This document shows, piece after piece, positions 6,912 through 59,494 of a DNA stretch of 64,000 nucleotides. The notes beneath the pieces are model-generated. The model saw only the letters and a program-made list of their open reading frames with translations, was not told the DNA's origin and searched no databases. The first letter of the stretch is position 1; every line of letters begins with the position of its first letter. Origin of the DNA: Hormiphora californensis (lineage: Eukaryota > Animalia > Ctenophora); contig CM035355.1 in assembly GCA_020137815.1 (NCBI GenBank), forward strand, positions 124,001 to 188,000. The letters run 5' to 3'. Made by a program: the position numbers and the translations under genes.

Positions 6912-7017
6912 CTTGATAAGGATTCTCCTCGCATTTGATCGTCACACTCACAGTCACTGATATTGCTGCATAGGTCCACTTTTTGAAATGGCTCATTGAG
7001 CTGCGAATTTTTGGAAC
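6912..7017 (-). CDS. Internal exon (106 nt, phase 1-2): GSKNSQLNEPFQKVDLCSNISDCECDDQMRGESLS
   Basis: tctttgcag| acceptor, AAG|gtaaac donor, open frame, phase-compatible with neighbouring exons. Confidence 0.65.
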
Positions 7018-28197: not shown

Positions 28198-28294
<97 letters not shown>

Positions 28295-28325
28295 TGGTGT
28301 GTGTGTGTGTGGTGTGTGTGTGTGT

Positions 28326-28380
<55 letters not shown>

Positions 28381-30210: not shown

Positions 30211-30315
30211 CAAGATGGTCCCACCAAATTCGACTTCGTTCAGAATGATGCTCAAGCTGCCGTATTGCATTCTTAAGACACTTTATTTTTCCTCGATACA
30301 TGTCTTCTCATCTGC
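30211..30315 (-). pseudogene. Duplicate of exon 44196-44301 (1-nt deletion)
   Basis: Same splice sites; 105 vs 106 nt. Confidence 0.6.
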
Positions 30316-30374
30316 CTGTGGAGTGTTTAACGATCACTAGGATTATAGGCAAGTCAAATCGTGTTATGTAAATA

Positions 30375-30810
30375 TCCTTATTATAAAGTACAAATGCGTG
30401 GCGTGGTGAGGAGGAGGATGTAGTATCCCACGTGCAAATGGTGGGGGTTGCCAAGGAGGTGGCTTGGGAGGGGTATTGGAGGTTTTGGGGGGATACTGCA
30501 CGTGCATGTTGTTGATTGTTTCTTGCGTGTTCCTGTGGTGTTCCTGTGGTGGTTTTGGGATCTACTGCTGGGATCGCCATGATTGCCAAACCCTTTCTAC
30601 CTACGTACCCCGTTGATTCTCTACACAGCTATCTATGGATCTTTATCACCTGTTTCTACATGTTATTCAGGGATTTCCCTTGATATTTATCATCAGCGCT
30701 CTACCATACGAACCTCCGTATTCTTTACCCCGACATGGAGAGACGAATAGTAAGAGCTAGAGGGGGGATAGAGACGGGGGGGTGTTGTAATACTACAATG
30801 GGCTTTCTAG
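30375..30810 (+). mobile_element. Non-autonomous Helitron (duplicate of 44361-44799)
   Basis: A|TC...hairpin...CTAG|T. Confidence 0.7.
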
Positions 30811-31404
30811 TTATTATATATTTTTCAATAGTCGCCCAAACAAACTATTACTCTCTAAAGGCAAGCCAATTCAGGTTGAATGTGAATTTATTTGTGAACA
30901 AGAATAATTGTCGTGATGCTAGCTTAAATAATGCGCCAGTGGCGAGAGGTGCCACTGGCACGCTCTCTATAAAAAGCCATCTGGGTCTGCTCTGATCAAA
31001 TCAAATCAACCCCAGGGAAACCTAGGGCAGAATTATTTCAAACCGTGTCAAACCGTGTCACACACACATTGTCATATCGACAGATCTCAATTTCTGGAAT
31101 TGCTGTTCTCTGTGGCACTGATTTTTCTTGTTTTTTCTCTCTCAATTTGATTCTCTCTTTTTCCTATCCCGAAATTCTCTCTCTTCTCTCTTTCAAATCA
31201 GACTCTTGCCGCGTCACTTTCGAGCCTGATGTGTCAAACGGAGCGGTCATCCTTTAATCACCAATCGGAGGTTTCGTTTCTGTGCGAGGTAACTGATTTC
31301 TCTCTCTTCCATCAGTGCGCTCCCGATACAAACCAAATCAAGGAGCCAGCCCTAAGACACAACCTCAAGCTAGGGACAAAGTGCAGCTCCCTAGTTGTGA
31401 GTAG

Positions 31405-34400
31405 TAATAATAATAATAATAATAATATTCCGCACTTATATACCGCCCATACCCGACGGAAACATGTCAAAAATATGGCGATGTTCCGACGAGTCATCAG
31501 AGCGGTATATCTAGAGTATAAATATCGCACACGAACAACTCTGGTTGAAAAAGACAATATATGGAAAACCAAATTAACTGGACTTATCAAAACTGGGGGA
31601 ATAACTGGTCCCATAAACCTGTAGATATAATTTTAAACACGCTAACTCACACCTGCTCAAAAAAGGATACCAGATAGTGATTTAATAACATGACTAGAGA
31701 GAGGATGACACTGATTGCCCGCAGGCCCCACAACTACAACAAAAAATTACAACTCAGCCATGGGTTCCCCATCACCCACTCCAAATGCCACAACGAAGAG
31801 ATGTGTTTTCAGGCGAGCTTTAAAGGTATCAACGTTGGGGATCGTCCTTAACTCGAGGGGTAGCTCATTCCAAATAGTAGGCAGAAATACCGATAGTCTC
31901 CTACGTCTCAATTTAGAATTGGCATTGATACTGGTCATCTTGGGGTGTTTTAATCTGTAAGGATCAATAACATTAGTCATCCTTGTTGTCCTGGAGACTC
32001 CCCAGCTTTCATCAAGAGGTACCATTTCCTGGAGGTAACCTGGGGCTGTTCCATAGAATATCTTATAAGCGATTAGACAGGCTTTGAAGTCCAGTTGTAG
32101 GAGAGGGTACAATATGACACTGCCTGAAGTATTCCAAGTAACCTCTTGATGCCCATGGATGTTGAATATAAAGCGGACACAGGAGTTTAGTGTTTTCTGG
32201 AGCCCACCAAGAACTCGGGCCGGAAGTCCACAGTACAGAATATTACTGTAATCAATCCTCGATATAATCAATTGTTTGACCAGCATTATCTTCGTTTGAA
32301 TAAAAACATCTGTGTAACTGCCAGAGATTCCGTAGTATCAGCCCACACTGTTTCCTCACATTATTCTCTTCACCTTCGCCAGACACTCCTCAATATAAAC
32401 TTTGTCCTAGACCAGCCAGTAGAATCCGTAGGAACCAGACTCACATAGAGCTGGGAGTCGTCTGCATATAACTTTATCCGGAGTCCATATGGTTCCACAA
32501 TATCTTGCACAGCTTCAATGTAAAGTAGAAACAAAATTGGACCAAGAAGGGACCCCTGGGGCACTCCACAGAGTAAGGCTAGGGTATCGAGAAAAATCAC
32601 CAACTGAGACTCTAAAAGATCTGGAACTCAAGTAGCTCTTAAAACATTGAAGAGGATCACCATCCACTCCAAACCGTTTCTGCAACACCTCCAACAACTT
32701 TTCATGATCCACCGTATCAAATGCGGCACTCATGTCCAAACAGATCAGAGCCACGACATTTTCTTTATCCATCTCACCTAATACATCGTCAAACATGCTG
32801 GCTAACAGAGTTTCGCAACTGTGACCAGCACGATAACCGATTGATGCTTGCCCAGAAGTGAATTGCTTTCAAGGTACTCATTCAGCTGCATGAGCACCAC
32901 CTTTTCTAGGAGCTTAGAAAGGAATGGGATATTTGAGACAGGACGATAGTACTGAGAGCTTCCCTATCTCCGTACATATTCTTGGGTAGGAAACACGATA
33001 GCCTTCTGGAGAGATTCCGCAACTGTAGACTGATGTAGAGATTGGTTTACCTCGATGTTAATACCGGAGCAAGATCCCTAATGCACTCCTTTACTACCAA
33101 GTGGGCAACGGATCAAGGTCACAATGTTTGCTTGACATAGACTTCACCCCCTTAACAAGTTCCTCCTCCGATATCTCTTGAATTCTTCCACGTTGAATGA
33201 CAGGCTTTTCCGGGTTCCTCAAAGTCGCCAGCTTGCTTCTGCCCCTCATTGACTTGGGTTCGAATTTTTTCCACTTTGGAACTAAAGAACTGGGAGAAAT
33301 CATCTGCCAAGTTCTTGGTGTTTGTTGTTTCAGGAAGAATTGTTTCAGCTTTTCCAAGAAGTTTCTGGAGCTTACTTTGCAATTTCTTTGGGTACCTTTG
33401 GCAGCAACCAAGTCTCTTTATGAAAAGTGACCTCTTTTCCCATCATCTTTCCATACAGTTTCTTCAGGTCATTAAATCTCCGTTTCGCATCCACAGTTCC
33501 GAGTTTCCGCCAACACCGTTCTGCATTCCTCCTCTCTCGAAGTAATCCTCTAAGTTCCTCATCCCTCCATGGCTTAAACTTTTTCCCAATCCTCACCCGC
33601 TTCCTCGGTACTCGCCTCTCCACTATACCTTCCAGCCAACGATAGAAATTCACCACGCCCTCCTCTGGATCCCTACCTCCTTCAAAATCAGCCTTCCGCA
33701 AATCCTCCCTAAATCCTTCCAAATCCACTGACTTGTAATCCATGTACTCTCGATATACGACTTCTTCAGACAGGAGTTCGACAGGTCAGGTCTCACTTCA
33801 ATCCCCAACTGTACTAGGAAGTGATCTGATGTAGTACCATTAGGAAAATGGATATGTCACCTAGAGAAGTTTCTCTTGTAGTTATCACCAGTCCAAGGTT
33901 CCTCCAAGCCGGTGAGTAGGTAACAGTGGCACTCTTTGTTGAAGATCAAATGAATCCAGCAGCTCCAAAAGTTTCCTCGCATAGAAGTTATTAGCATCCT
34001 GCACCTGGAAGTTCAAGTCACCGAGCGATGATCGGAGTACCTTGCTTCATAACAAGCTCGGATAGGTAATCACCAAACTGATAGGAAGGTTGCTTCTGTA
34101 AGTCTTGACTTCGGTGTGTACGGAGGTCGGTAGACATTACAGATTCTCTTCGGTTGATCTCTGTCACTGATCAGGACCTCTTGAACTTGAAAAGACTTAT
34201 ACTTAGTCTTCACCGGACACTGTCGAAGAACTATGCCATCTCTAAAAAGGATTCCAATTCCTCCACCTCTCTGTCTCCTCTGGGGCACGAGAAAATATCC
34301 CATCCATTATCTCTGATTTCTTGAAGTTTTCCGGTGTCTGTTGATTTCAAAAATGTTTCCTGTATAAGACAAATATCACAATCCTCCTCTTCCAGATGCG

Positions 34401-35849
34401 AAATAACTCCTCCAGTTTGTTAATGAGAGAGCGGACATTTAGTGCTCCAATCTTCCAAGTCTTTTCCTGTGTAGTTCCTCCTTTGTCTCGTCCAGTACAG
34501 GTTTTTTTTCTTCTTGCTTACACCTGACGTCCTCTCCATAAGCCGTGCTCGTTCATTGATTGTACGAGGGACACCACATAGAAGCGTATGGGTCCTCGCA
34601 TACTTCTTGTCCTCTCTTGATCCTCCAACCGCACAGTTCACACACTTCATCTTACCAGTCTCATTGTTTTTCTTTGCCCTACAGTCCTTTGTCTGGTGTG
34701 TTCCAGCACAAAAGCAGCACACAGGGTTTTCCTTCTGAGGACAGTAGATCGAGCCTGCTATATGTCCGTATCCTTGACAGTGATAGCATTGAATCACATG
34801 ATACCGTTCTTGACAATGTTGTCGAAGACCTAGGTTGAGTTTATCACCGTTGTTAGACAAAAGCCTCCGGATCTCTGGAGCCATCTGGATCACTGCATAC
34901 CTGTCTCTCTCGCTCACAAACACTACTTTCAACTTCTTATCCTCATGATAAAGCTTTCTGATATCCTCATTTTTGTTCAAAATTGCTGCCAGGATAGTCT
35001 CCTTTTCCAGTAGTTCAGGGTTTCAAATCATTAATCGTCACTTTGGTTCAAGTTTCTTGGCCTCCTCTGAGAAGAATGACATGGAGCAGTCCTGTGCAAG
35101 AGGAGTCAACACTTTCTCCGCTTCCTTCATCTGGTCCTCATTAGGGAAATACAGTCGAGTATGGTCACTGTTCACTCTGGATCTCACCCACGGTACGTCT
35201 CAACGCAGTTTCCACTTTGGGTTTGACCTCATCAGTCCATTCTTCGCACAGAATCCTAACCCTCCTTCCTCATTGATGCCAGTTTTAATATTCACATAGT
35301 GTTTCATCGTAGGTGTAACCGGTTCTCTGGATCACCACCACCACCAATGTCACTTCTACCATTCTCCACAGGCTTGACCAAAGCAGAGATAGTCGAAACC
35401 AGATCTTTGTGCAGCTTTGCAAACGACTCCTTCAGGTCAGTTGGTCTCCAGGAACAGAAAACGGTGCCGACGCCGGAAGCATACTGTAGCAGGCTTTGAG
35501 AAGATGCCACAACTGAGGTTTATGGACAGACGACGGACAAACAGTTCACCCCTCTCAAGGCACACTAACAAATCAATACCCTTATAATCATTGCTAAATA
35601 CTTCTCCTGATAACACGTCTTCAAAATCACTCTTAGTGATACATATGTCATAATTACTCGTAACGGTCATCCTAAAACACCGTTGCACGCCGGCCAACAA
35701 AAAACTCTTCACTGATATCACTCGAAGTTAAGTTAAAGTAGGCCTAACAGAGATCTAAAAGATTAGAGAATAGATGCTAACACAGTTATCGGAACGATGA
35801 CGGCAAACTCAAATTAATTTGTTTAAAGTAGTGTTGAAAAGTTTGAAAC
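31405..35849 (-). mobile_element. L2/CR1-group LINE, frameshift-riddled twin of 45384-49882
   Basis: Fragmented ORFs with LDMSAAFDTVDH, GVPQGSLLGP, YADD and CCHC knuckles; (ATT)n tail; SL at 35808-35849. Confidence 0.9.
35808..35849 (-). other. Spliced-leader exon sequence at the LINE 5' end (twin copy)
   Basis: GTTTCAAACTTTTCAACACTACTTTAAACAAATTAATTTGAG, identical to 49841-49882. Confidence 0.75.
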
Positions 35850-36342
35850 AAAGACAACTTGTATATCACTACATTTTGATGCCAGCCCTGTTGACCCAAG
35901 CTTCCTGCCAGCTCTTTGACAGGCCCAGAACTAATGCATGTGTAGTTATACTGCCAAGGGGAGCCTACCAACACAACCCAGGATAAACTAGTCATACACT
36001 GAGATTGTAAAGTTTTACACATAAAATACATCTGAAACCAAATAATATTCCACCGCCTGACAACTGACAGGGTAACACGTTGAAATTTTGATCGTACAAT
36101 AGAAGAGAGATTGCATTTTCCAACTTTTATCTCCAAGTGGCTCATGTTTCTGAACCACCCTGTACTAGGGGTTGCTAAGTCGAATGAATCGCAATGAATC
36201 ATTTTACCTGTTATTCATTGGGTAATTATCTACTGATATCTGGAGTTTCAGCCCAAACGGTTGAGCCACTAAAAATCGCAAGCCACCCTGCTCTCGCATG
36301 GGGCCTCACGGCCCCATGTGGGAGTGGTGCGTGTAGTGGACC

Positions 36343-36373
<31 letters not shown>

Positions 36374-37305
36374 GGATAGAAAGAACAGGAATGAGTTACC
36401 CTCGAAAAATAAGAGATTGAGATACCGAGGGATAGAGATACCCGGCAGTAGCAAAAGGTGTAAGTGGGTCACCTTTCCCGCCAAGTAATTTCAATTAGTT
36501 TTTGGTGTCCCATATATTCTGTGGGTCGGTTGGCGAGCTGTCACGCAAAAACGGTGATAGTTGTGTGAAAACAAACTACGGGAGTGTGCTGGATTAATTC
36601 CTTCCTAACTGATGGCTTTGTTTTTAAATTAAATTTCAAAAGTGTCATTTTCATGAATGAACATTCTGTCATTCATTCGTGAATTCTGAAATATTGTTTA
36701 CCTTGAGTAAAAAACTTTTCTTGGCTCGAAATTATTTTTTCAGTGAGCACCATAAAAATCAAATTGAAGCACCGGATCCATGGCAGGTGAGAAAATGCAA
36801 ATGCATGATTTTGGCCATTCCTGCGACTTTCGATCAGCTGTATCACCGCTACTTTTCGTTCAATCCTTTTAAAAGTTTGGGTGAACATTGCTGAAGATAA
36901 GATGCTCACAAGAAAAATCAAGGTCAAAACTCAAAGTTAATTTTTTATTTTGGTAGTTCATTCCACTCTTCAGGAACAAACATCCCTAAAGTGACGAAAA
37001 GGTTTGGGTTTTGTTTGGCCCATGTCCTGAAACGACAGAGAGGTGTAAAAACGTGTTTCGGGCTAGTTAGTGGGTGTCCATGTGATCATTATGATATCTG
37101 ACACCTTTGCTGAGCCATAATTAAGAGATTTTCTCAAATTCAAACATGGGTACGGATATTCTGCGATTGGTATCGTGCACCAATAACAAGAGATCCATAG
37201 CACCTCAAAATAATGATTAGCAATAAATGAGTTGATTTACGATTGAAAATGTAAAGTCGGACTAAACGAACATTTTCAAGCGTGAATCAACTCATTTCAT
37301 TTAGC

Positions 37306-39315: not shown

Positions 39316-40161
39316 CAGTCGGACCCCAATTTAGTGGCCCCCGATTTAGTGGCACCCCGATTTAGTGGCACGATTTTTTTCCCCCAAAATTTTTTTTGTG
39401 AAATTTTTTGAAAATTTTTCAAAGGAATACCAGCCACGTCCAAATCGTGTTTCGAATCAGTGAATCTTATCGCATATCCTGCTGCTAATTAGACGGTTCG
39501 CAACGAACCGATACGTGATCCCCTGGGGGCCATTGAATCACAAGTTCACCAAGAGTCAAAATTTCGATTCGATGGGGATCACGTTCCGATTCGTTCCGAA
39601 CCATCTAATTAGCAGCAGGACATGCGATAAGATTCACCGATTCGAAACACGATTCGGACATGGTATACTTTTTAAAAAAATTTAAAACCTTTTTTGCAAA
39701 ATTTTACAGTACGATTGTCAATGCTTTGATCGGTGCTCCTCAAAAATTTTGAGAGAAAAAGTTATTTTGAAATTTTGATACTTCCTCACCCGCTTAGGGT
39801 GCCCCGATTCGGCATGGTATCACGTATCGGTTCGTTTCGAACCTGCTAATTAGACAGGACATCCAGTAAGCTGCACCGATTCGAAACACAAATCGGACGG
39901 GCTGGTATAATATAAGAAAATTTTCACAATTTTTTTTGAAAAAATTATTTTAAAGTTTTCTATTTCTAATCAGAAATTATCATGTCATCAATACATGAAC
40001 ATTGTATATAACAGTTAGAGGTGTTTTTAGTCGTGGTATAGCATTTTGGGCATAAAATAGGTTTTTATGGGCCAAATATGGATCTCCCCGATTTAGTGGC
40101 ACCCCGATTTAGTGGCAGGATTTTTTTCCCCCGAGGATGCCACTAAATCGGGGTCCGACTG
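39316..40161. mobile_element. Pogo/Tigger-like MITE, TA TSD
   Basis: ta|cagtcggacccc ... ggggtccgactg|ta; empty TA site at 26032-26033. Confidence 0.9.
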
Positions 40162-40566
40162 TAATAACAAAAATTTTAATAAAAAAAATTAAGTAATTTT
40201 TGAGGATTAATGATGATTTTTAAGGATTAATGAGGGCCCTCATTAATTCAAAAAGTGCTGGACAAGATATCATCCTCATTAATTATTGCCCCCCCCCCCC
40301 CATCGCACTTCATCACTCAATATTCAAGTATTTATTAGGAAGTAATTTTGATATCTCGTCTCCTTCTGCCGGGACTGTCTGGCGGCGCTGACCCGATCTA
40401 AGCACACTGACGCACGCTTAGAGAATCAAAACGGGTCGTTGGGGTCTGGCGGCGCCTGGGGTTGAGAGGATTCAACAGGCAGTGAGAGGACTCAAAAGGG
40501 GGTGTGAAAGTCAATAGCGGCGAAAGGAGTCAAGCGCAATAGGGATTGGTTCTAACTACTACTTAC

Positions 40567-40953
40567 CGCAAACTTTGGACCTTTTACATTGTAGCTCGGT
40601 GATGTCAGAAATTGTGCTGTAATCGTTGATCAACATTGACATTAAATCCATCGATTCTATGGATATCGTATCCTGTTCGGAGTCAGTCTCAGTACTATCA
40701 ATATCATAACAACGCCATGATTCTGGATCCGCACATTTCATGTTATTTTGATTAGCAACAAGTGACGTTGATGTCACTGATTCCACAGACTCGTATAAAG
40801 CAGAATTTTTTTCCTTGTCCAAGTAGCAACTGTTTGTAGCAATCTCAACTGATTTCTCATGAGAGGTAGAAGGTGCCCGTAAACGTATAGAGAAGGAAAA
40901 TACAACCTCGTCATCAACAAGCTGCAGATGTTCCTCAACGGCCTCCCATTCGC
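40567..40953 (-). CDS. Internal exon (387 nt, phase 1-1), acidic Ser-rich
   Basis: atttacattttag| acceptor, G|gtaagt donor, open reading frame throughout. Confidence 0.75.
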
Positions 40954-41338
40954 CTAAAATGTAAATATTTATAGATTAGTTTAGAGCAAAAACTAATTGA
41001 AGTTAGTTCAATGGAAAGGTAGCCCATTTTGTTTTTACTCCTTCATTTCCGTCACCTTGAGTTGAAGGTGGAAAAGTATACGGATACCTCAATGTCTATT
41101 GGTTGTGTGGGTGAACATTGTACTATAAGCAAAGATCTCTGCTCACAAGAAAAGTCAAGGTCAAAACTGTTTTTCTTTTTTGGTGGTTCATTCCACTCGA
41201 TTCATGAACCAAAATCCCAAAAGTGATGAAAAGGTTTGGCTTTTCTGGCCCACGCCCTGCAATGACAGAGAGTTGTTGTAGCGTGTTTCCGGGCTAATTT
41301 GTGTAAATGGGATCAACCTGCATCCTCAATATCCTTAA

Positions 41339-41807
41339 AGTGAGAGTGGACCGAATCAGAATTGGACAAGTTTGGTGTAGGTGGTAGAGATTAGCTTTCT
41401 GAGCATTTTGCGTTTTTGCCGCTCAAAATCGACCCACCCATCACTGAGATATCTTTGTTATGTTGGGAGAATTTCTGCTGGATCAATATTTATGAAACAG
41501 GATAGAAATAATCCTTGTGTTTTACTAACACATTCTTTAAATTTTCAATATGCTAACTTGCATTGTTCTGCATCTGTGCATGAACATGTCAACCTCACTG
41601 CTTATATTCAGAATGTGTTAGGAAAACATGACGATTGTTTCTATTCTGTTTTTTACATACTGATTAAACAGGAGTTCTCCCAACATAACAAAAATATCTC
41701 AGTGATGGGTGGGTCGATTTTAAGCGGCAAAACCGCGTTATGCTCAGAGAGCTAATCTGTACTACCTACAACAAACTTGTCCAATTCTGATTCGGTCCAC
41801 TCTCACT
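41339..41807. mobile_element. Kolobok-like MITE, TTAA TSD
   Basis: Same family as 4055-4523, opposite orientation. Confidence 0.8.
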
Positions 41808-42343
41808 TTAAATCGATAGTGTTTACGCAGTGTTTACGCAGTGTTTACGCAGTGAATACAGAAAGAATATGCAGTGAATACGCCGTGGTTCCAGAGTGAA
41901 TACGCAGCGAATACGCAATTATTGTGGATATCCTACCAGAACTGGTTACGCAGTGTTTAAAGGGCCTAAAAACCCAAACTTTTATTTAATTATTTTGAAC
42001 ACTACAGCGTAACAAGCATGTTATTGGAGTCCCAAAAAACATAGGTACACGCCCCACCCGCCCAATGTGAGGCCAGGGGGAGCCCCTTAAGTTGGGGCCA
42101 GTCGGGGTTCCCTTGTAAACGCGCTTGTACTCCTTGAAATGCTAACAATATGATCCTCACTGAAATTTGAAGTTTTGGGTGCAGTTGATCCGAAGATCAC
42201 GAATTCAATTAATATGTCGTGATTACTGTTTAATAGCTCAACTGGTCATTCCGAAAAATCAGATACAAACCGCACTGTATATGAGTTGGATCGCTTGGTT
42301 ACTTCCTTCGTTAAACAAGCACACATTACAGTGTGAGAGAATA

Positions 42344-42375
<32 letters not shown>

Positions 42376-43115
42376 TTCAACAAGGACACCGACCCAACCT
42401 CCTGTAAAGCTGGAAACATCGATCTACAAGCAGCCATCGCATCAAAATTAAAAAACAGATAACTCGTCACGTTGTTGTCAGTCTGCTGATACCATTCCTG
42501 ACTACCCTCCTGTTAAAGGTTACTCCAGTCTTCGTAACAACTCGCTCGTCGCTCTGCTAAAGGAAGGCATATAGCAAAGCTCACTTCACAACCACTTCAC
42601 GCGGATACATTAGTTGAGTGCGTGGTATATTTTCTTGTGTTATGTATACCGAAACTAATTTGTAAATCTTGTAAATCTAATCATTGTCATGTTTGTCTCT
42701 CTAGGTTTCGTCATGTATGCTGTCCCTCAGTGCGGTAATAAGTTTTGTGTCATGTTGCATTGTATTACCTCATTACCTCATTACCTGAGCATTGTATTAC
42801 CTCATCTATCACCATTCAACGAACTCGAACCGCCGCTGCAGTGACCCACCGAGCCAACTTCTCCTCCCAGCTCCTCCAACAATCCTCGTCTTCATGAGAT
42901 CGGAGTTCAACCACCACGAAGAACCAGAGGACGTCCGAGGACCAGAGCAACCCCTGAGGACCTTCTTCCTTCAGATTTTGGTCAGACAGTGAAACCGAAC
43001 AGCAGAGATATGGGGATTCAAGCCATCAGATGCAATATCTGCAAACAGCCGGGACATGTCGATAGAATCTGTCCCACCCATTCCACTGCATCCTCGACTA
43101 CTCATCCAGCTCTTA

Positions 43116-43371
43116 AAGTCGGATTTCTTCAAGTTATCACCCCCCTTTTCGCGCGCGGTGTCGTATTTGCGCGTGACAGCCCCCACTTTCTCTCACTTCT
43201 CGGCAAAAAGCCGCATATTCATCGGAAAGAAAATAATTTTGTGAGTCCGTAAAGTTTTTGTTTGACGAAATTGGTCAAGAAATGAAGGCGTGAGAGTCAA
43301 AATAAGTTTCCAGCACGCAAATAAAATGTCGCGTGCCACCCAGGGCGGTGACAACTTCAAAAATCCGACTT
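43116..43371. mobile_element. MITE interrupting the zinc-knuckle ORF
   Basis: ta|aagtcggattt ... aaatccgactt|ta; removal restores the reading frame. Confidence 0.8.
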
Positions 43372-43907
43372 TACTTCTTTCCCTGCAGTTGTGTCTAAAT
43401 TTGTCCAGACTTCTCCATCTTTTTCTACTAGACGCCCTGATTTGGGAGATGACTTCATTGAAATGCTAATGAACGGTGTCTCTCTTTCTGATGCATTACG
43501 CTGGTATGGACTGAAGCGAGAGGAGCTGTCATGATTGCGTATTCACTGCGTATTTGCTGCATATTCACTCTGGAACCGCGGCGTATTCACTGCGTATTAC
43601 TTGCGTATTCGCTCTGTATTCACTGCGTATTCGGTCTGTGTTATATACTACATAAACGCTGCGTAAACACTGCGTAAACACTATCGGAGGATGCGGGTAG
43701 AACCAAAGACTGAGTATTGGCAGCCAAAGTTGTGCCAATTTTCCTCAAAAATCCCAAACGTAATTGAGAAAATCTTCCCAAAATCTCAAAAATCTTATCG
43801 GCCAAAAATAGCGTAGCTGAGATTTTTGCGGCAGCCCCCCCCCCCCCTCCTCGTATTATCTTTTCAAAGTACTGTTCTTAAAAATTGATCTCCAAAATTG
43901 TTGTTTT

Positions 43908-44102
43908 TCAGGACAAAATTGGGTAGTACATATGAAATATTAGGTCGTGCGCGCCAAATGGCGCCAAATGGCGCCAGAAATGGCGCTATTTGGCGATAGT
44001 GCGCACTCGCTACATTTTGGCGCCAAATGGCGCCATTTATTCGCCACGTGGCGCCATTTGGCGTGCACGACCTAATTTTTCATACTACCCAAAATTGTCC
44101 TG
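43908..44102. mobile_element. Short palindromic MITE with ggcgccaaat subrepeats (copy at ~29927-30120)
   Basis: caggacaaaattgggtagta ... tactacccaaaattgtcctg. Confidence 0.7.
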
Positions 44103-44195
44103 TTTTTCTTCTATAGCTATTCTATGCCCATTGCCCATGGGAATGTTACAAATCTTAATTGAGGTCCTTAACGTAATTTATTTTGCATTGCTTAC

Positions 44196-44301
44196 CAAGA
44201 TGGTCCCACCAAATTCGACTTCGTTCAGAATGATGCTCAAGCTGCCGTATTGCATTCTTAAGACACTTTATTTCTTCCTCGATACATGTCTTCTCATCTG
44301 C
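44196..44301 (-). CDS. Internal exon (106 nt, phase 0-1): ADEKTCIEEEIKCLKNAIRQLEHHSERSRIWWDHL
   Basis: ctccacag| acceptor, G|gtaagc donor; joins the next exon as ...WWDHLGEWEAVEEH. Confidence 0.75.
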
Positions 44302-44360
44302 CTGTGGAGTGTTTAACGATCACTAGGATTATAGGCAAGTCAAATCGTGTTATGTAAATA

Positions 44361-44799
44361 TCCTTATTATAAAGTACAAATGCGTGGCGTGGTGAGGAGG
44401 AGGATGTAGTATCCCACGTGCAAATGGTGGGGGTTGCCAAGGAGGTGGCTTGGGAGGGGTATTGGAGGTTTTGGGGGGATACTGCACGTGCATGTTGTTG
44501 ATTGTTTCTTGCGTGTTCCTGTGGTGTTCCTGTGGTGTTTTGGGATCTACTGCTGGGATCGCCATGATTGCCAAACCCTTTCTACCTACGTACCCCGTTG
44601 ATTCTCTACACAGCTATCTATGGATCTTTATCACCTGTTTCTACATGTTATTCAGCGGGATTTCCCTTGATATTTATCATCAGCGCTCTACCACTACGAA
44701 CCTCCGTATTCTTTACCCCGACATGGAGAGACGAATAGTAAGAGCTAGAGGGGGGATAGAGACGGGGGGGGTGTTGTAATACTACAATGGGCTTTCTAG
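44361..44799 (+). mobile_element. Non-autonomous Helitron
   Basis: A|TCCTTATTAT ... ttgta-atac-tacaa hairpin ... CTAG|T, no TSD; inverted relative at 52822-53273. Confidence 0.75.
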
Positions 44800-45736
44800 T
44801 TATTATATATTTTTCAATAGTCGCCCAAACCTATTACTCTCTAAAGGCAAGCCAATTCAGGTTGAATGTGATATTATTTGTGAACAAGAATAATTGTCGT
44901 GATGCTAGCTTAAATAATGCGCCAGTGGCGAGAGGTGCCACTGGCACGCTCTCTATAAAAAGCCATCTGGGTCTGCTCTGATCAAATCAAATCAACCCCA
45001 GGGAAACCTAGGGCAGAATTATTTCAAACCGTGTCAAACCGTGTCACACACACATTGTCATATCGACAGATCTCAATTTCTGGAATTGCTGTTTCTCTGT
45101 GGCACTGATTTTTCTTGTTTCTCTCTCCCAATTTGATTTCTCTCTTTTCCTATCCCGAAATTTCTCTCTCTTCTCTCTTTCAAATCAGACTCTTGCCGCG
45201 TCACTTTCGAGCCTGATGTGTCAAACGGAGCGGTCATCCTTTAATCACCAAATCGGAGGTTTCGTTTCTGTGCGAGGTAACTGATTCTCTCTCTCTTCCA
45301 TCAGTGCGCTCCCGATACAAACCAAATCAAGGAGCCAGCCCTAAGACACAACCTCAAGCTAGGGACAAAGTGCAGCTCCCTAGTTGTGAGTAGTAATAAT
45401 AATAATAATAATAATATTCCGCACTTATATACCGCCCATACCCGACGGAAACATGTCAAAATATTGGCGATGTTCCGACGAGTCATCAGAGCGGTATATC
45501 CTAGAGTATAAATATCGCACACGAACAACTCTGGTTGAAAAAGACAATATATGGAAAACCAAATTAACTGGACTTATCAAAACTGGGGGAATAACTGGTC
45601 CCATAAACCTGTAGATATAATTTTAAACACGCTATACTCACACCTGCTCAAAAAAGGATACCAGATAGTGATTTAATAACATGACTAGAGAGAGGATGAC
45701 ACTGATTGCCCGCAGGCCCCACAACTACAACAAACA

Positions 45737-46360
45737 TTACAACTCAGCCATGGGTTCCCCATCACCCACTCCAAATGCACCAACGAAGAGATGTGTTTTC
45801 AGGCGAGCTTTAAAGGTATCAACGTTGGGGATCGTCCTTAACTCGAGGGGTAGCTCATTCCAAATAGTAGGCAGAAATACCGATAGTCTCCTACGTCTCA
45901 ATTTAGAATTGGCATTGATACTGGTCATCTTGGGGTGTTTTAATCTGTAAGGATCAATAACATTAGTCATCCTTGTTGTCCTGGAGACTCCCCAGCTTTC
46001 ATCAAGAGGTACCATTTCCTGGAGGTAACCTGGTGCTGTTCCATAGACTATCTTATAAGCGATTAGACAGGCTTTGAAGTCCAGTCTGTAGGAGATGGGT
46101 ACAATATGACACTGCCTGAAGTATTCCAAGTAATCCTCTTGATGCCCATGGATGTTGAATATAAAGCGTACACAGGAGTTTAGTGTTTTCTGGAGCCCAC
46201 CAAGAACTCGGGCCGGAAGTCCACAGTACAGAATATTACTGTAATCAATCCTCGATATAATCAATTGTTTGACCAGCATTATCTTCGTTTGAATATCAAA
46301 ACATCTGTGTAACTGCCAGAGATTCCGTAGTATCAGCCCACACTGTTTCCTCACATTATT
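45737..46360 (-). pseudogene. C-terminal part of LINE ORF2, out of frame after the deletion
   Basis: L2-type motifs SRIDYSN..GLP, FKACLIAYK, APGYL, WNELP..FKARLKTHLF. Confidence 0.85.
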
Positions 46361-49300
46361 CTCTTCACCTTCGCCAGACACTCCTCAATATCAACCTTTG
46401 TCCTAGACCAGCCAGTAGAATCCGTAGGAACCAGACTCACATAGAGCTGGGAGTCGTCTGCATATAACTTTATCCGGAGTCCATATGGTTCCACAATATC
46501 TTGCACAGCTTCAATGTAAAGTAGAAACAAAATTGGACCAAGAAGGGACCCCTGGGGCACTCCACAGAGTAAGGCTAGGGTATCCGAGAAACAATCACCA
46601 ACTGAGACTCTAAAAGATCTGGAACTCAAGTAGCTCTTAAACCATTGAAGAGGATCACCATCCACTCCAAACCGTTTCTGCAACACCTCCAACAACTTTT
46701 CATGATCCACCGTATCAAATGCGGCACTCATGTCCAAACAGATCAGAGCCACGACATTTTCTTTATCCATCTCACCTAATACATCGTCAAACATGCTGGC
46801 TAACAGAGTTTCGCAACTGTGACCAGCACGATAACCGGATTGATGCTTGCCCAGAAGTGAATTGCTTTCAAGGTACTCATTCAGCTGCATGAGCACCACC
46901 TTTTCTAGGAGCTTAGAAAGGAATGGGATATTTGAGACAGGACGATAGTTACTGAGAGCTTCCCTATCTCCGTACATATTCTTGATGGTAGGAAACACGA
47001 TAGCCTTCTGGAGAGATTCCGCAACTGTAGACTGATGTAGAGATTGGTTTACCATCGATGTTAATACCGGAGCAAGATCCCTAATGCACTCCTTTACTAC
47101 CCAAGTGGGCAACGGATCAAGGTCACAATGTTTGCTTGACATAGACTTCACCACCTTAACAAGTTCCTCCTCCGATATCTCTTTGAATTCCTTCCACGTT
47201 GAATGACAGGCTTTTCCGGGTTCCTCAAAGTCGCCAGCTTGCTTCTGCTCCTCATTGACTTGGGTTCGAATTTTTTCCACTTTGGAACTAAAGAACTGGG
47301 AGAAATCATCTGCCAAGTTCTTGGTGTTTGTTGTTTCAGGAAGAATTGTTTCAGCTTTTCCAAGAAGTTTCTGGAGCTTACTTTGCAATTTCTTTGGGTC
47401 ACCTTTGGCAGCAACCAAGTCCTCTTTAATGAAAAGTGACCTCTTTTCCCTATCCATCTTTCCATACAGTTTCTTCAGGTCATTAAATCTCCGTTTCGCA
47501 TCCACAGTTCCGAGTTTCCGCCAACACCGTTCTGCATTCCTCCTCTCTCGAAGTAATCCTCTAAGTTCCTCATCCCTCCATGGCTTAAACTTTTTCCCAA
47601 TCCTCACCCGCTTCCTCGGTACTCGCCTCTCCACTATACCTTCCAGCCAACGATAGAAATTCACCACGCCCTCCTCTGGATCCCTACCTCCTTCAAAATC
47701 AGCCTTCCGCAAATCCTCCCTAAATCCTTCCAAATCCACTGACTTGTAATCCATGTACTCTCGATATACTGACTTCTTCAGACAGGAGTTCGACAGGTCA
47801 GGTCTCACTTCAATCCCAAACTGTACTAGGAAGTGATCTGATGTAGTACCATTAGGAAATATGGATATGTCACCTAGAGAAGTTTCTCTTGTAGTTATCA
47901 CCAAGTCCAAGGTTCCTCCAAGCCGGTGAGTAGGTAACAGTGGCACTCTTTGTTGAAGATCAAATGAATCCAGCAGCTCCAAAAGTTTCCTCGCATAGAA
48001 GTTATTAGCATCCTGCACCTGGAAGTTCAAGTCACCAGCGATGATCGGAGTACCTTGCTTCATAACAAGCTCGGATAGGTAATCACCAAACTCCGATAGG
48101 AAGGTTGCTTCTGTAAGTCTTGACTTCGGTGTGTACGGAGGTCGGTAGACATTACAGATTCTCTTCGGTTGATCTCTGTCACTGATCAGGACCTCTTGAA
48201 CTTGAAAAGACTTATACTTAGTCTTCACCGGACACTGTCGAAGAACTATGCCATCTCTAAAAAGGATTCCAATTCCTCCACCTCCTCTGTCTCCTCTGGG
48301 GCACGAGAAAATATCCCATCCATTATCTCTGATTTCTTGAAGTTTTCCGGTGTCTGTTGATTTCAAAAATGTTTCCTGTATAAGACAAATATCACAATCC
48401 TCCTCTTCCAGATGCGAAATAACTCCTCCAGTTTTGTTAATGAGAGAGCGGACATTTAGTGTCCCAATCTTCCAAGTCTTTTCCTGTGTAGTTCCTCCTT
48501 TGTCCTCGTCCAGTACAGGTTTTTTTTCTTCTTTGCTTACACCTGACGTCCTCTCCATAAGCCGTGCTCGTTCATTGATGTACGAGGGACACCACATACT
48601 AGAAGCTGTATGGGTCCTCGCATACTTCTTGTCCTCTCTTGATCCTCCAACCGCACAGTTCACACACTTCATCTTACCAGTCTCATTGTTCTTCTTTGCC
48701 CTACAGTCCTTTGTCTGGTGTGTTCCAGCACAAAAGCAGCACACAGGGTTTTCCTTCTGAGGACAGTAGATCGAGCCTGCTATATGTCCGTATCCTTGAC
48801 AGTGATAGCATTGAATCACATGATACCTGTTCTTGACAAAATGTTGTCGAAGACCTAGGTTGAGTTTATCACCGTTGTTAGACAAAAGCCTCCGGATCTC
48901 TGGAGCCATCTGGATCACTGCATACCTGTCTCTCTCGCTCACAAACACTACTTTCAACTTCTTATCCTCATGATAAAGCTTTCTGATATCCTCATTTTTG
49001 TTCAAAATTGCTGCCAGGATAGTCTCCTTTTCCAGTAGTTCAGGGTTCAAATCATTAATCGTCACCTTTGGTTCAAGTTTCTTGGCCTCCTCTGAGAAGA
49101 ATGACATGGAGCAGTCCTGTGCAAGAGGAGTCAACACTTTCTCCGCTTCCTTCATCTGGTCCTCATTAGGGAAATACAGTCGAGTATGGTCACTGTTCAC
49201 TCTGGATCTCACCACCGGTATCGTCTTCAACGCAGTTTCCACTTTGGGTTTGACCTCATCAGTCCACTTCTTCGCACAGAATCCTAACCCTCCTTCCTCA

Positions 49301-49701
49301 TTGATGCCAGTTTTAATATTCACATAGTGTTTCATCGTAGGTGTAACCGGTTCCTCTGGATCACCACCACCACCAATGTCACTTCTACCATTCTCCACAG
49401 GCTTGACCAAAGCAGAGATAGTCGAAACCAGATCTTTGTGCAGCTTTGCAAACGACTCCTTCAGGTCAGTTTGGTCTCCAGGAACAGAAAACGGTGCCGA
49501 CGCCGGAAGCATACTGTAGCAGGCTTTGAGAAGATGCCACAACTGAGGTTTATGGACAGACGACGGACAAACAGTGTCACCCCTCTCAAGGCACACTAAC
49601 AAATCACTACCCTTATAATCATTGCTAAATACTTCTCCTGATAACACGTCTTCAAAATCACTCTTAGTGATACATATGTCATAATTACTCGTAACGGTCA
49701 T
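46351..49701 (-). CDS. LINE polyprotein: gag-like ORF1 (three Cys/His knuckles) + APE endonuclease + reverse transcriptase (truncated after YADD)
   Basis: CYHCQGYGH, CCFCAGTH, CVNC..H..C; NVRS, QET, YRPP, GDLN, SDH; NYRPVS, QSGYR, LDMSAAFD, GVPQGS, YADD. Confidence 0.92.
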   Translation of the reverse strand: MTVTSNYDICITKSDFEDVLSGEVFSNDYKGSDLLVCLERGDTVCPSSVHKPQLWHLLKACYSMLPASAPFSVPGDQTDLKESFAKLHKDLVSTISALVKPVENGRSDIGGGGDPEEPVTPTMKHYVNIKTGINEEGGLGFCAKKWTDEVKPKVETALKTIPVVRSRVNSDHTRLYFPNEDQMKEAEKVLTPLAQDCSMSFFSEEAKKLEPKVTINDLNPELLEKETILAAILNKNEDIRKLYHEDKKLKVVFVSERDRYAVIQMAPEIRRLLSNNGDKLNLGLRQHFVKNRYHVIQCYHCQGYGHIAGSIYCPQKENPVCCFCAGTHQTKDCRAKKNNETGKMKCVNCAVGGSREDKKYARTHTASSMWCPSYINERARLMERTSGVSKEEKKPVLDEDKGGTTQEKTWKIGTLNVRSLINKTGGVISHLEEEDCDICLIQETFLKSTDTGKLQEIRDNGWDIFSCPRGDRGGGGIGILFRDGIVLRQCPVKTKYKSFQVQEVLISDRDQPKRICNVYRPPYTPKSRLTEATFLSEFGDYLSELVMKQGTPIIAGDLNFQVQDANNFYARKLLELLDSFDLQQRVPLLPTHRLGGTLDLVITTRETSLGDISIFPNGTTSDHFLVQFGIEVRPDLSNSCLKKSVYREYMDYKSVDLEGFREDLRKADFEGGRDPEEGVVNFYRWLEGIVERRVPRKRVRIGKKFKPWRDEELRGLLRERRNAERCWRKLGTVDAKRRFNDLKKLYGKMDREKRSLFIKEDLVAAKGDPKKLQSKLQKLLGKAETILPETTNTKNLADDFSQFFSSKVEKIRTQVNEEQKQAGDFEEPGKACHSTWKEFKEISEEELVKVVKSMSSKHCDLDPLPTWVVKECIRDLAPVLTSMVNQSLHQSTVAESLQKAIVFPTIKNMYGDREALSNYRPVSNIPFLSKLLEKVVLMQLNEYLESNSLLGKHQSGYRAGHSCETLLASMFDDVLGEMDKENVVALICLDMSAAFDTVDHEKLLEVLQKRFGVDGDPLQWFKSYLSSRSFRVSVGDCFSDTLALLCGVPQGSLLGPILFLLYIEAVQDIVEPYGLRIKLYADDSQLYVSLVPTDSTGWSRTKVDIEECLAKVKRIM

Positions 49702-49840
49702 CCTAAAACACCCGTTGCACGCCGGCCAACAAAAAACTCTTCACTGATATCACTCGAAGTTAAGTTAAAGTAGGCCTAACAGAGATCTAAAAGATTAGAG
49801 AATAGATGCTAACACAGTTATCGGAACGATTGACGGCAAA

Positions 49841-49882
49841 CTCAAATTAATTTGTTTAAAGTAGTGTTGAAAAGTTTGAAAC
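49841..49882 (-). other. Ctenophore-type spliced-leader exon forming the LINE 5' terminus
   Basis: 42 nt GTTTCAAACTTTTCAACACTACTTTAAACAAATTAATTTGAG matches the ctenophore SL as recalled; followed by TTTGCC, not a GT donor. Confidence 0.75.
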
Positions 49883-50381
49883 AAAGACAACTTGTATATC
49901 ACTACATTTTGATGCCAGCCCTGTTGACCCAAGCTTCCTGCCAGCTCTTTGACAGGCCCCAGAACTAATGCATGTGCTAGTTATACTGCCAAGGGGAGCC
50001 TACCAACACAACCCAGGATAACTAGTCATACACTGAGATTGTAAAGTTTTACACATAAAATACATCTGAAAACCAAATAATATTCCACCGCCTGACAACT
50101 GACAGGGTAACACGTTGAAATTTTGATCCGTACAATAGAGAGAGGATTGTATTTTTCCAACTTTTATCTCCAAGTGGCTCCATGTTTCTGAACCACCCTG
50201 TACTAGGGGTTGCTAAGTCGGAATGAATCGCTATGAATCATTTTACCTGTTATTCATTGGGTAATTATCTACTGATATCTGGAGTTTCAGCCCAAACGGT
50301 TGAGCCACTAAAAATCGCAAGCCACCCTGCTCTCGCATGGGGCCTCACGGCCCCATGTGGGAGTGGTGCGTGTAGTGGACC

Positions 50382-50382
<1 letters not shown>

Positions 50383-50468
<86 letters not shown>
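50383..50468 (+). repeat. (GA)n microsatellite
   Basis: Direct. Confidence 0.95.
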
Positions 50469-50471
<3 letters not shown>

Positions 50472-50605
50472 TAGAAAGAACAGGAATGAGTTACCCTCGA
50501 AAAATAAGAGATTGAGATACCGAGGGATAGAGATACCCGGCAGTAGCAAAAGGTGTAAGTGGGTCACCTTTCCCGCCAAGTAATTTCAATTAGTTTTTGG
50601 CTTAA

Positions 50606-55834: not shown

Positions 55835-58800
55835 GGTGCACCCTAGTGGCGGTGGCGGTTTTTCTGTCCACTAGAAAGGGCTCTGAGCCCCGGACAACAT
55901 TTGGCGAAGGGGTTCATCCCAGGGTCTACGATGTGAAGTCTAAAACCTCTCGTATTCCAAGTACCGTGGTGCGTGATGAAGAATCACATCCCTCACAAGG
56001 TGCCACTGTTAATCGCTTTTCTGTCCTGGGTGATACCAGACTAAACAGATAAACGAAACGGAACACCACGGTACTAAACCAGTAAAGGTTGAAAAACAAT
56101 CCGTTGCGGGAGCTAGCAAACTCCCGTACCGTATCGGCCTGCTTACTCCTGTCTCTCCTGGAACGTTATCATGGTTGATTCTGGTGAGAGTGGCCGATTT
56201 ATCTTTAGGGGTTGGATCAGTTCCTGCGGTTTCCGGTGATGGACCAGTGGCGCGGCATCATCGGTTATGGAGGGTGCTATTATTGCCTACCTGAGAGGGG
56301 GGACCCTCTCTGTACCCTCCTAGCCATCTGAAAAGCAATCTAATGAAGTTCACCTATAGCGCCAGGGTTAAAGCCCCTGATATTCTTGCGGAGGCCAATG
56401 GCGCCCTTGAAGTGGTAGGCTTAAAGCCTTCGGGAGGGCCTGCTACAGATGGCCGGAGGTCCGAGCCGGAACAGAAAAAAGAACCAAAAAACCCCTTAAA
56501 AACTATAAAAAAATCTAGGATTTTAGGGTGTGATAGTGAGACTACAGAAATACCAAAAACATTTGGGATTATTGGTTGTAGGAGGGAAACGGTCGTGGGT
56601 ACTTTGAATGTGAGGACTATACGGGATGATTGTCGGAGGGAGGTTATGGTGAGCAGGTTTCTGAGTAGTGGTGTGGGTGTTATGGGTGTGCAGGAGCACA
56701 GGATCTGTCATGGCGAGGACGTGCAAGTGGAGAGAGGGAGAGGATTCTGTTTTGTATCTTCGTCGGCGTGGAGGAGTGGTTCTGGTGCAGCGTGTGGCGG
56801 GGTTGGGATGTTTCTGACAGAGGAAGCGTACAGGGCAGTGAAACTGGTGAAACCCTACACTAAGAGGATCCTCCTGGTTAGTTTCTCTGGTAACCCTGCT
56901 CTTACCGTAGTTTGTGTGTACTCTCCTACAGAGGGGAGTGATGCTGAGGAGGCTTCGTTGTTTCATCAGGATCTGCGTGCGGCTATTCATGAGGTTCCAG
57001 CGCATGATGTTCTGTTAGTAGTGGGTGACGTGAATGCTCACCTATCTAGGACGTCACCTGAGGACTCCGGCTTCTATCTCCATCCTACCTCCAACAGGAA
57101 TGGGACCCTCTTGCGTGACACTATGGTTGAGTGTGACCTTGTCGCCGGAAATCATCTGTTCCAGAAGAAGGCATCTAAGCTTCATACTTTCACCAGTGAT
57201 GGTACCCTCTGCAAGAGTCAGATCGACTATATTCTGGTCAGGAGTAAGTGGCGGAACTCTCTGCGGAACCTTGAGGTGGTGGACTCCTTCGGGGATGTCG
57301 GCTCAGATCACCGTGCAGTACTGGGTTTCATACGGCTGAGTCTCCGGAAGACAAAACGACCCAAGGGCCAGATCAGATATGACTTCACTCAGCTGAAGGA
57401 GGATACTGATTTACAGGACGAGTACAGTGTAGAGGTGAACAATCGTTTTGATGTTCTGAAGCAGGATGTGGAACTGAATGACGGTTCTGGGAGGTACGGG
57501 GCATTCGTTACAGCTGTCACTGAGACTAACAGTCGTTTGCTCCCCCGCAAGAGGAAACGAACCCATGACACAGCGATGGATGACCCTAGAGTTCAGACAG
57601 ACCGCGAGGAGTTATTTGTGGCAAAAAGGGCTTTCTTTCATGACCCCACGGAGGAGAGTAGGTGTGTGGTCAGTGAGAAGAAGGAGGCTCTTAGTGCTAC
57701 ACATGCCCTGGTGACTGAGGAGATTGTTAGTAGGAAAATAAGGCGTGTGGAGGCGGCCACTGATGAGAGGAAAAGTAAGGAGGCTTGGGATCTTATTAGA
57801 GATGTTACCGGAGGTGGTCGTCCTGGTGGTCTTGTGGAGGGTGGCAGCGCGGAAGGAAGGTTAGAATCGTGGAGGAACCATTTCTCTGGGATACTGGGCG
57901 CCCCGCCTGATGTCCCTGATGAGGACCTGACAGTTCACACGGTTAGTGAGGAACTTCCCATTTCTACCGACCGGTTCACTGCAGAGGAGTTTGATACTGC
58001 TAGGAGGTCGATCAAAGAAGGCAAGGCGTCGGGTGATGATGGTGTTGCACCGGAGGTGTTGAAGAGAGGAGGAGTCAGTGAGATCATGCTGGACTTCTAC
58101 AACGATGCTCTGGAGAATGGTAGCTTCCCGGATCAGTGGAGGAATCTCCTTATAGTCCCTGTTCCTAAAAAGGGCGACCTCACCAAAACTGGGAACTACA
58201 GGGGGATCTCTCTTACTTCTGTGGCTCTAAAGACCCTTAATAAGATTATCCTTAACCGGTTACTGCCCCACGTTGAGCCACTTCTGAGGGACAACCAAAA
58301 CGGTTTCCGCCCTGGACGTTCAACAACGTCCCACATCCTGGCTCTGCGGCGGTTACTGGAAGGTGTAACTGAGCGTAAACTTACCTCAGTTATACTATTT
58401 GTTGATTTTAAACGGGCCTTCGATTCAATACACAGAGGAACCCTTATGCGTATCCTGAGAGCCTACGGGATCCCGGAGAAGCTAGTTAGTCTGATCGAGT
58501 GCTCCTACCGGGACACCATCGCCCGGGTCAAAACGGAGGATGGTCTTACTGAAGCCATTGCTATTCTGGCAGGCGTACTGCAGGGGGACACTCTGGCACC
58601 ATACCTCTTCATCATCGTCATCGATTACGTCATGAGGCAGGCTCTGGAGGGTAAGGACTTTGGCTTCACAATCACCAGGCGAAGGAGTCGTCGTCATCCC
58701 GAGGTGAAGATCTCTGACACCGACTATGCGGACGATCTGTCACTGCTAGCCGATACGATCGACGAGGCTCAGGAGTTTCTTCTGAGTCTGGAGAGTGCTG

Positions 58801-59494
58801 CTGCAGCGGTTGGTTTACATCTCAACGAGGGGAAGACCAAGTTTATGGCCACTGGATATGAGGAGCCCTCCCTCGTGACTGCGAGTGGTAGGCAACTGGA
58901 ATGGGTGGATGACTTCGTCTACCTGGGTGCTCATCTCCGGTCCACAGAGCACGATTTCAATGTAAGGAAGGCCAAGGCCTGGGCGGCTTGTCATCGCTTG
59001 AGGAGTGTATGGAAGACTGACATGAGGAGGAGTTGCAAGGTTAATCTGTTCAGAACAACAGTGGAAGCCATACTACTCTATGGAGCAGAGACCTGGACAC
59101 TTACAGCTAGTCTGGAAAAACGCCTGGATGGATGTCATAGTAACATGCTGAGAATGGCACTGGGTATCAATTGGTGGGACAAGGTGCGGAATGAGGACGT
59201 CTATCAGAATACTCCCAGGGCATCTGAAACTGTCCGAGCTCGCAGATTAAGGCTGGCTGGTCATATACAGCGCCATCCCGAGCTTACTGCTCACCAGCTT
59301 CTTTTCTGGGAGCCGGACAGAGGGAATCGTAGCAGGGGGAGGCCCCAGAAGACTTTCCTTAAGCAAATCAGGGACGATACTGGTCTTGCATCCGATAACG
59401 AGATAAAGGAGCTTATGCAAAACCGGGAGCTGTGGCGGACTGATATAGTTGCTCGGACATGGAAGCCGCCCTAAGTCAAGTAAGTCAGTAAGTC
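55835..59494 (+). mobile_element. Full-length RTE-clade LINE
   Basis: 6-bp TSD agtgac (55829-55834, 59495-59500); ~500 nt 5'UTR; tail taagtcaagtaagtcagtaagtc; empty site visible in the mirror arm ~60500. Confidence 0.92.
56343..59474 (+). CDS. RTE endonuclease-reverse transcriptase, 1043 aa, intact
   Basis: NVRT, QEHR, GDVNA, IDYIL, SDH; NYRGISL, QNGFR, DFKRAFD, GVLQGD, YADD, LNEGKT, YLG, LLYGAETW, RGRP. Confidence 0.95.
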   Translation: MKFTYSARVKAPDILAEANGALEVVGLKPSGGPATDGRRSEPEQKKEPKNPLKTIKKSRILGCDSETTEIPKTFGIIGCRRETVVGTLNVRTIRDDCRREVMVSRFLSSGVGVMGVQEHRICHGEDVQVERGRGFCFVSSSAWRSGSGAACGGVGMFLTEEAYRAVKLVKPYTKRILLVSFSGNPALTVVCVYSPTEGSDAEEASLFHQDLRAAIHEVPAHDVLLVVGDVNAHLSRTSPEDSGFYLHPTSNRNGTLLRDTMVECDLVAGNHLFQKKASKLHTFTSDGTLCKSQIDYILVRSKWRNSLRNLEVVDSFGDVGSDHRAVLGFIRLSLRKTKRPKGQIRYDFTQLKEDTDLQDEYSVEVNNRFDVLKQDVELNDGSGRYGAFVTAVTETNSRLLPRKRKRTHDTAMDDPRVQTDREELFVAKRAFFHDPTEESRCVVSEKKEALSATHALVTEEIVSRKIRRVEAATDERKSKEAWDLIRDVTGGGRPGGLVEGGSAEGRLESWRNHFSGILGAPPDVPDEDLTVHTVSEELPISTDRFTAEEFDTARRSIKEGKASGDDGVAPEVLKRGGVSEIMLDFYNDALENGSFPDQWRNLLIVPVPKKGDLTKTGNYRGISLTSVALKTLNKIILNRLLPHVEPLLRDNQNGFRPGRSTTSHILALRRLLEGVTERKLTSVILFVDFKRAFDSIHRGTLMRILRAYGIPEKLVSLIECSYRDTIARVKTEDGLTEAIAILAGVLQGDTLAPYLFIIVIDYVMRQALEGKDFGFTITRRRSRRHPEVKISDTDYADDLSLLADTIDEAQEFLLSLESAAAAVGLHLNEGKTKFMATGYEEPSLVTASGRQLEWVDDFVYLGAHLRSTEHDFNVRKAKAWAACHRLRSVWKTDMRRSCKVNLFRTTVEAILLYGAETWTLTASLEKRLDGCHSNMLRMALGINWWDKVRNEDVYQNTPRASETVRARRLRLAGHIQRHPELTAHQLLFWEPDRGNRSRGRPQKTFLKQIRDDTGLASDNEIKELMQNRELWRTDIVARTWKPP

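Follow-up and report, generated by a model that had tools for sequence, protein, structure and literature searches.

Non-LTR retrotransposons must restore their 5′ end in every cycle, and the known solutions are internal promoters and self-cleaving ribozymes. A LINE in the ctenophore Hormiphora californensis, found in a stretch of 64,000 nucleotides (the window, in which all positions are counted), raises the question of how this is achieved by an element whose 5′ end is a copy of the host's spliced leader (SL). An earlier note had proposed that a read-through transcript could be trans-spliced again at the SL's own terminal AG, regenerating an identical 5′ end in each cycle, or at internal AGs, giving stepwise shorter variants. 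What emerges is that a whole clade of ctenophore LINEs begins with the host leader, and that a single DNA joint bears the mark of splicing at the following acceptor (Table 1).

Table 1. The SL-headed LINE of the window, its upstream flank and its candidate splice signals
Feature	Positions	Strand	Remarks
Single-locus upstream flank	49883..50090	.	Unlike SL-gene upstream sequence
SL copy at 5′ end of LINE	49841..49882	-	42 of 43 nt of the ctenophore SL; first A missing
TTAAT branch-like motif	49846..49850	-	Candidate branch A at 49847
Terminal GAG of SL copy	49841..49843	-	Sole AG able to regenerate the family junction; putative acceptor
LINE 5′ UTR, 139 nt	49702..49840	-	First 120 nt 86% identical to L011; first 30 nt without AG
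First internal TAG	49809..49811	-	Acceptor of shorter SL-headed variant
Acceptor-like pyrimidine tract and TAG, ttctctaatcttttag	49787..49802	-	No use seen
gtgttttag just before ATG	49703..49711	-	AG at 49704-49703; conserved in 6 of 8 clade members
ORF1	48520..49701	-	Cysteine/histidine knuckle-like motifs (by eye); ATG at 49701
ORF2, apurinic-type endonuclease and reverse transcriptase	45743..48525	-	Pfam PF03372/PF14529/PF00078
(ATT)7 3′ tail	45395..45415	-	Followed by no SL-intron sequence
SL head in copy of duplicated region	35808..35849	-	Same head; no independent insertion

The retrocopied SL that the earlier note saw at the 5′ end of the LINE is borne out. In a comparison by eye, the minus strand from 49882 to 49841 exactly reproduces all but the first 2 nt of the 44-nt leader of Hormiphora as printed in PMC8527503, and an alignment to an SL RNA gene copy (locus L027) gives 42 of 43 nt; the chance expectation for a 42-nt SL match is about 1e-19 in the window. 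The copy ends AAATTAATTTGAG at 49841, and its terminal GAG is covered, with no variants listed, in runs of organisms A and B. That the copy is itself an SL RNA gene was considered and rejected: here the SL runs into TTTG, whereas in the true gene, L027, it is followed by GTAAG, in a 778-bp tandem unit that alternates with 5S rRNA (Rfam 106 bits). The alternating SL and 5S stretches of L027 are at 263-381, 709-735, 1041-1159 and 1487-1513, and the SL is preceded by several CACGTG boxes. When both flanks of the LINE were compared with this unit, no resemblance was found. We conclude that the window SL is a retrocopied leader, neither an SL gene nor an insertion into one, and that the head very probably derives from a trans-spliced RNA.

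Sequencing runs of DNA and RNA, analysed as contigs, place the boundary of the repeated element at the SL. In two DNA runs (X2 and X5), the summed depth of the LINE is roughly 1e4-1e5 and that of the SL bin 5e5-1e6; upstream of 49882, depth falls to one unique contig in X5 (338.6) or to zero in X2. Single UTR contigs in X5 have depths of 8482 and 9270, against 338.6 for the flank, which suggests tens of copies, contig depths not being copy numbers. The unique flank at 49912-50055 is covered in X5 and absent in X2, which may reflect a polymorphic haplotype or the loss of the sequence in filtering.

The element is an APE-type non-LTR retrotransposon, with an endonuclease, a reverse transcriptase, a simple-repeat tail and dispersed copies. 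PF03372 and PF00078 score above the Pfam cut-off in ORF2, whose best PDB matches are LINE-1 ORF2; a frameshift near 46370 is common to both window copies, and ORF1 is in frame with ORF2 through an A-run longer than that of the related locus L011. The element may belong to the CR1 group (L2-like). As in LINEs of that group, it has an ORF1, an endonuclease-RT ORF2 and a short tandem-repeat tail, and a target-site duplication, sought at the LINE ends in the window, was not found; unlike them, it begins with the host SL and not with an element-specific start. A homologue search with ORF1 found none, and a sequence look-up turned up no stretch resembling the window. Scans of viral and prokaryote collections gave no relatives with ORF1, used for families with decayed heads, and no match with the SL.

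The second copy of the head (35849-35808) belongs to a region of about 10 kb that is directly duplicated (97.6% over 8285 columns), so that the window holds one insertion and not two; deletions in the left copy account for 140 of the 155 gap bases. Large direct duplications pair 26030-36505 with 40160-50600 and 6853-11512 with 15742-20296; the differences within the former pair are mostly deletions in one copy, and the duplications are possibly an uncollapsed noisy assembly. A further LINE, at 56295-59474 on the plus strand and presumably RTE-like, has an open 1059-codon endonuclease-RT ORF and is without an SL head.

A host gene around the LINE, with exons downstream in the same orientation, had been proposed as the setting for read-through. 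What is found downstream are candidate exons on the minus strand, 44301-44196 and 40953-40567, with AG/GT ends and compatible phases. A homologue search with 40953-40567 gave no match, a Pfam profile search of 95 short ORFs of the window placed none at the cut-off, and an upstream host exon was sought and not found, 50091-50370 being a high-copy repeat; the host gene and its read-through are left unsupported by these searches. A further exon candidate, at about 50306-50246, was rejected because it falls inside the high-copy repeat. Opposite the candidate host exons, an ORF piece at 42845-43249 (+) has a weak zinc-knuckle match, below the Pfam cut-off.

An SL scan, which required an exact 27 nt of the SL and to which families with decayed heads are therefore invisible, elements with an altered 27-mer being undetectable, returned 42 loci. 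Thirty of these are mRNA-like, and the other 12 comprise 11 element heads and one SL gene, L027. Seven of the 42 are homologous to the window LINE (P0001), with 37-88% amino-acid identity over the matched stretches; all seven have the SL directly at the 5′ end, and their flanks are all different. On the ORF1 tree, SL heads occupy all eight tips (the window and its seven relatives), and a head of this kind is a trait common to all eight sampled members of the clade. The remaining four SL-headed elements form a second group (L020, L024, L037 and L040), in which L024 has an endonuclease domain; L020, L037 and L040 are probably elements as well, judging from a shared UTR motif, the homology of L020 to L040 (E 2e-15) and the repeat tail of L040.

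Several details of these loci may be recorded here. A CCCC hairpin motif is shared by the second group within the first 45 nt past the SL, and TTTYAG is kept 6 nt downstream of the SL in L020, L024 and L040, while L037 begins at GAT, as if spliced at that site. L040, which ends in an (AAT)n tail, appears to be an element with ORF1 alone. L024 has 366 nt upstream of the search match, i.e. flank before the SL, and the other six loci sharing its contig-name prefix are mRNA-like; it is possibly an unspliced read-through transcript, or DNA. L018, an SL-headed ORF for a secreted protein among otherwise genomic-looking loci, may be a host retrocopy.

The clade is under purifying selection (dN/dS about 0.1). 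Between the window element and L011, dS is 0.66 in ORF1 and 1.06 in ORF2, with dN/dS of 0.10 and 0.06, and the junction of SL and UTR is identical; most other pairs in the family have dS >1.6 or saturated. Matches of the 12 element heads to the SL gene measure 42, 40, 41, 42, 43, 35, 28, 41, 42, 38, 41 and 42 nt, so that nine are 40-43 nt long, one is complete and 11 are clipped (three of the 12 have ≤6 nt of flank on the contig). Before the clip there are no substitutions in any of the 12, including 151 nt beyond the search pattern, whereas the UTRs next to them are 45-60% alike between distant families. This combination, 11 of 12 heads clipped and no substitution in 151 positions, favours re-supply of the leader over neutral inheritance, and appears also compatible with strong selection on a head inherited in cis.

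The first 4 nt past the SL are T-rich in 7 of 8 element lineages and in 4 of the 30 loci that are mRNA-like, a difference tested post hoc (Fisher p=2e-4). The junction of the elements is similar to an initiator and to the start of the SL gene itself; as a speculation, the first capture of an SL may have used the CAG of an ancestral initiator. Special pairing between SL and UTR was also considered and failed a shuffle test (z -0.7 to +1.0 in 12 elements).

Where would a new leader be joined? The TTAAT motif pointed out by the earlier note as preceding the terminal AG is present; its adenosine, 49847, precedes the terminal G by 6 nt and the AG at 49809 by 38 nt. In human cases (PMC1636351), AGs 6-7 nt past the branch point are not selected; by that measure TTAAT would be too near to serve the terminal AG and is better placed for 49809. 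Other branch candidates are TNA adenosines at -16/-17 inside the SL. In yeast, a proximal GAG is skipped in favour of an adjacent UAG (PMC12707134). The distance from SL to the next AG is 22-36 nt in all eight clade elements, compared with a median of 12 in 30 mRNA-like loci. This zone free of AG exceeds that of host mRNAs (p=0.005, four lineages vs 30); when set against shuffles of the same UTRs it is not significant (p 0.19-0.41 each).

Shorter variants arising at internal AGs were foreseen, and one was found, at an AG that had been missed. In one of five DNA runs (X10), a joint of 49808 to 49841 has the SL attached precisely behind the 49809 TAG, skipping 32 nt; it is carried by one contig (side 24) at a depth of 138.6, compared with 3969.8 at 49755, and has a 2-nt AG overlap. 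This joint indicates that family RNAs are probably trans-spliced at internal sites. The other acceptors named earlier do exist, the pyrimidine tract at 49802-49787 (given before as ~49803-49787) and gtgttttag ahead of the ATG, and an additional TAG, strong-looking as is that at 49787, has its AG at 49776; no SL joint at 49787, 49776 or 49703 is listed among the five DNA runs. A variant with a damaged head, seen at low depth in X1 and X5, has the UTR starting at 49808 and a 7-nt duplication (loose ends 49800-49808, by eye). In X5, a low-depth copy has its UTR ending near the 49776 AG, followed by unrelated sequence that ends TTGAG (loose ends 49756-49775). Relict SLs head all 12 elements, and tandem relicts, which had been suggested alongside them, occur in none of the 12 heads. 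One X2 contig at 49853-49882 has a partial SL followed directly by a second SL start (depth 152), with no link to a LINE. As for the RNA runs, X22 covers the SL only and X9 contributes one 139-nt UTR piece; contigs bridge the junction in neither and cannot show 5′ ends, and such sparse cover is no sign that the family is silent.

Several other accounts of the heads have to be weighed. Targeted integration into SL RNA genes immediately past the exon, as in NeSL, CRE and SLACS, would explain a junction exactly at the exon end, and L019 and L026 do begin with GT. Nevertheless, the unique flanks are unlike the SL/5S unit, the 3′ flanks differ from the SL intron, the endonuclease is apurinic-type, and a suspected likeness between the intron of the SL RNA and the LINE UTRs was not borne out by shuffling (1 of 12 elements at p<0.05 vs 2 of 30 controls), so that this origin is largely refuted for these copies and hardly credible. 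Alternatively, a few hidden masters might keep a promoter, an outron and a normal YAG acceptor, with the SL-headed copies as their dead-end daughters. Ordinary splicing would then suffice, and rare variants do drop out of contigs, with 23 rows of loose ends beyond those listed; yet among those listed in four DNA runs, nothing but adapter appears upstream of 49840 other than SL, and dN/dS of 0.06-0.10 in several long-diverged families is hard to explain if daughters never reproduce. Since purifying selection implies that daughters became parents, and daughters are without an outron, hidden masters seem improbable as a general answer. The leader might also be completed by template switching, with LINE RNA starting inside the genomic head and the reverse transcriptase adding the rest from any SL-bearing mRNA through the shared tail. 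Fresh heads would then arise without use of the GAG, and the SL is present on at least 56% of the Iso-Seq reads of Hormiphora (PMC8527503). Such a route would require near-constant success, and no cluster of part-headed copies is listed at 49841-49864; we consider it quite improbable.

A head inherited in cis is unlikely, though far from negligible. Here an early trans-splicing event would have supplied the leader, the RNA would since have started at or near the SL copy, with the leader or the UTR as promoter, and been copied mostly unspliced, and selection would have kept the head. No weak GAG is needed, and both the TTTYAG of L020, L024 and L040 and the unused strong acceptors are accounted for. 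The UTR is more strongly conserved between window and L011 (86%) than are synonymous sites (pS 0.44-0.57), and the damaged head common to two X1 contigs could reflect copying without re-splicing. A promoter role for relict SLs has been proposed in Symbiodinium (PMC5585692). Against this account, heads of which 11 of 12 are clipped would ratchet without re-supply, and 151 unselected head positions are free of substitutions, although they span two groups of elements and families whose dS is saturated.

The reading that we prefer, reached by elimination and given a probability of roughly one half, is that the leader is re-supplied by trans-splicing in each round of copying, at the copy's own terminal AG. 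Clade-wide heads, conserved junctions and clipped, unsubstituted leaders are as expected from repeated re-trans-splicing at that site, and SL-headed daughters likely propagate and regain the leader. If splicing re-supplies the leader and the junction is fixed, no acceptor other than the AG of the SL itself is possible. Transcription would begin upstream of or within the SL head, driven either by read-through from the host or by a promoter of the element, and the old head would form the 3′ end of the outron, with the branch A probably at -16/-17 or further upstream. The spliceosome would use the first AG encountered, that of the GAG, to attach a fresh SL, with no rival AG for 22-36 nt. The RNA would then be inserted by reverse transcription, which may be the step that clips the leader, usually by 1-3 nt, as the observed heads are clipped. 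Occasional use of the next TAG would yield a shorter variant of the type observed in the one DNA joint. The original proposal of re-splicing at the terminal AG thus gains indirect support, and its TTAAT branch point does not.

Several observations count against this cycle. The GAG would be a poor acceptor and is disfavoured by comparison. Re-splicing should remove the TTTYAG at +6 in L020, L024 and L040, and its retention in these three second-group elements would fit better with unspliced copying. The strong-looking acceptors at 49787 and 49776 show no use. The broader proposal is that in two or more groups of ctenophore LINEs the 5′ end is left to the trans-splicing of the host, the old leader serving as outron end and acceptor and being renewed at GAG without ever eroding; it is tentative, and we rate it somewhat short of an even chance.

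CRE, SLACS and CZAR are non-LTR elements that target SL genes. NeSL elements target SL exons (PMC4640811). As in all of these, SL exon sequence lies directly 5′ of the ctenophore element; NeSL, CRE and SLACS sit inside SL genes and have a restriction-like endonuclease, whereas the ctenophore LINEs are dispersed, with unique flanks and an N-terminal apurinic-type domain. In dinoflagellates, trans-spliced mRNA is reinserted with its leader, and the AGs of that leader can take a new SL (PMC3229502, PMC5585692 and PMC12014239); the recycled retrogenes of Slamovits and Keeling 2008 are described in PMC3229502, with the remark that the relict could be excised by splicing. The ctenophore copies resemble these retrogenes in that each is a reverse-transcribed RNA whose genomic copy starts with an SL. 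The dinoflagellate SL is used at its upstream AG and tandem relicts accumulate on host genes, whereas in ctenophores the SL is carried by a clade of autonomous animal LINEs, with no 5′ AG in 11 of 12 heads and no tandems in 12. About 30% of Hydra TE Iso-Seq reads carry an SL (PMC12220107), making TE RNAs trans-splicing substrates in a non-bilaterian animal; those data are RNA, whereas the ctenophore case consists of genomic LINE copies that start with the SL. A full-text search of open-access papers found no report, in the text covered, of animal LINE families with SL-starting genomic copies. SL-retrocopy recycling (dinoflagellate genes) and TE trans-splicing (Hydra) are already known from these sources; an animal LINE clade capped by the host SL is apparently new.

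The finding affects SL copy counts, as genomic leader matches include element heads besides SL genes. Matches of this kind number 718 and 491 in two ctenophores (PMC8527503), and if the cycle is true, a large share of the hundreds of ctenophore 'leader loci' would be retrotransposon heads and not SL RNA genes. The question is directly testable, as ctenophore long-read genomes and Iso-Seq data exist. If true, the cycle would also place a GAG acceptor in natural, selected use, and host trans-splicing would be another solution to the 5′-end problem, adopted by a whole clade in an early-branching animal.
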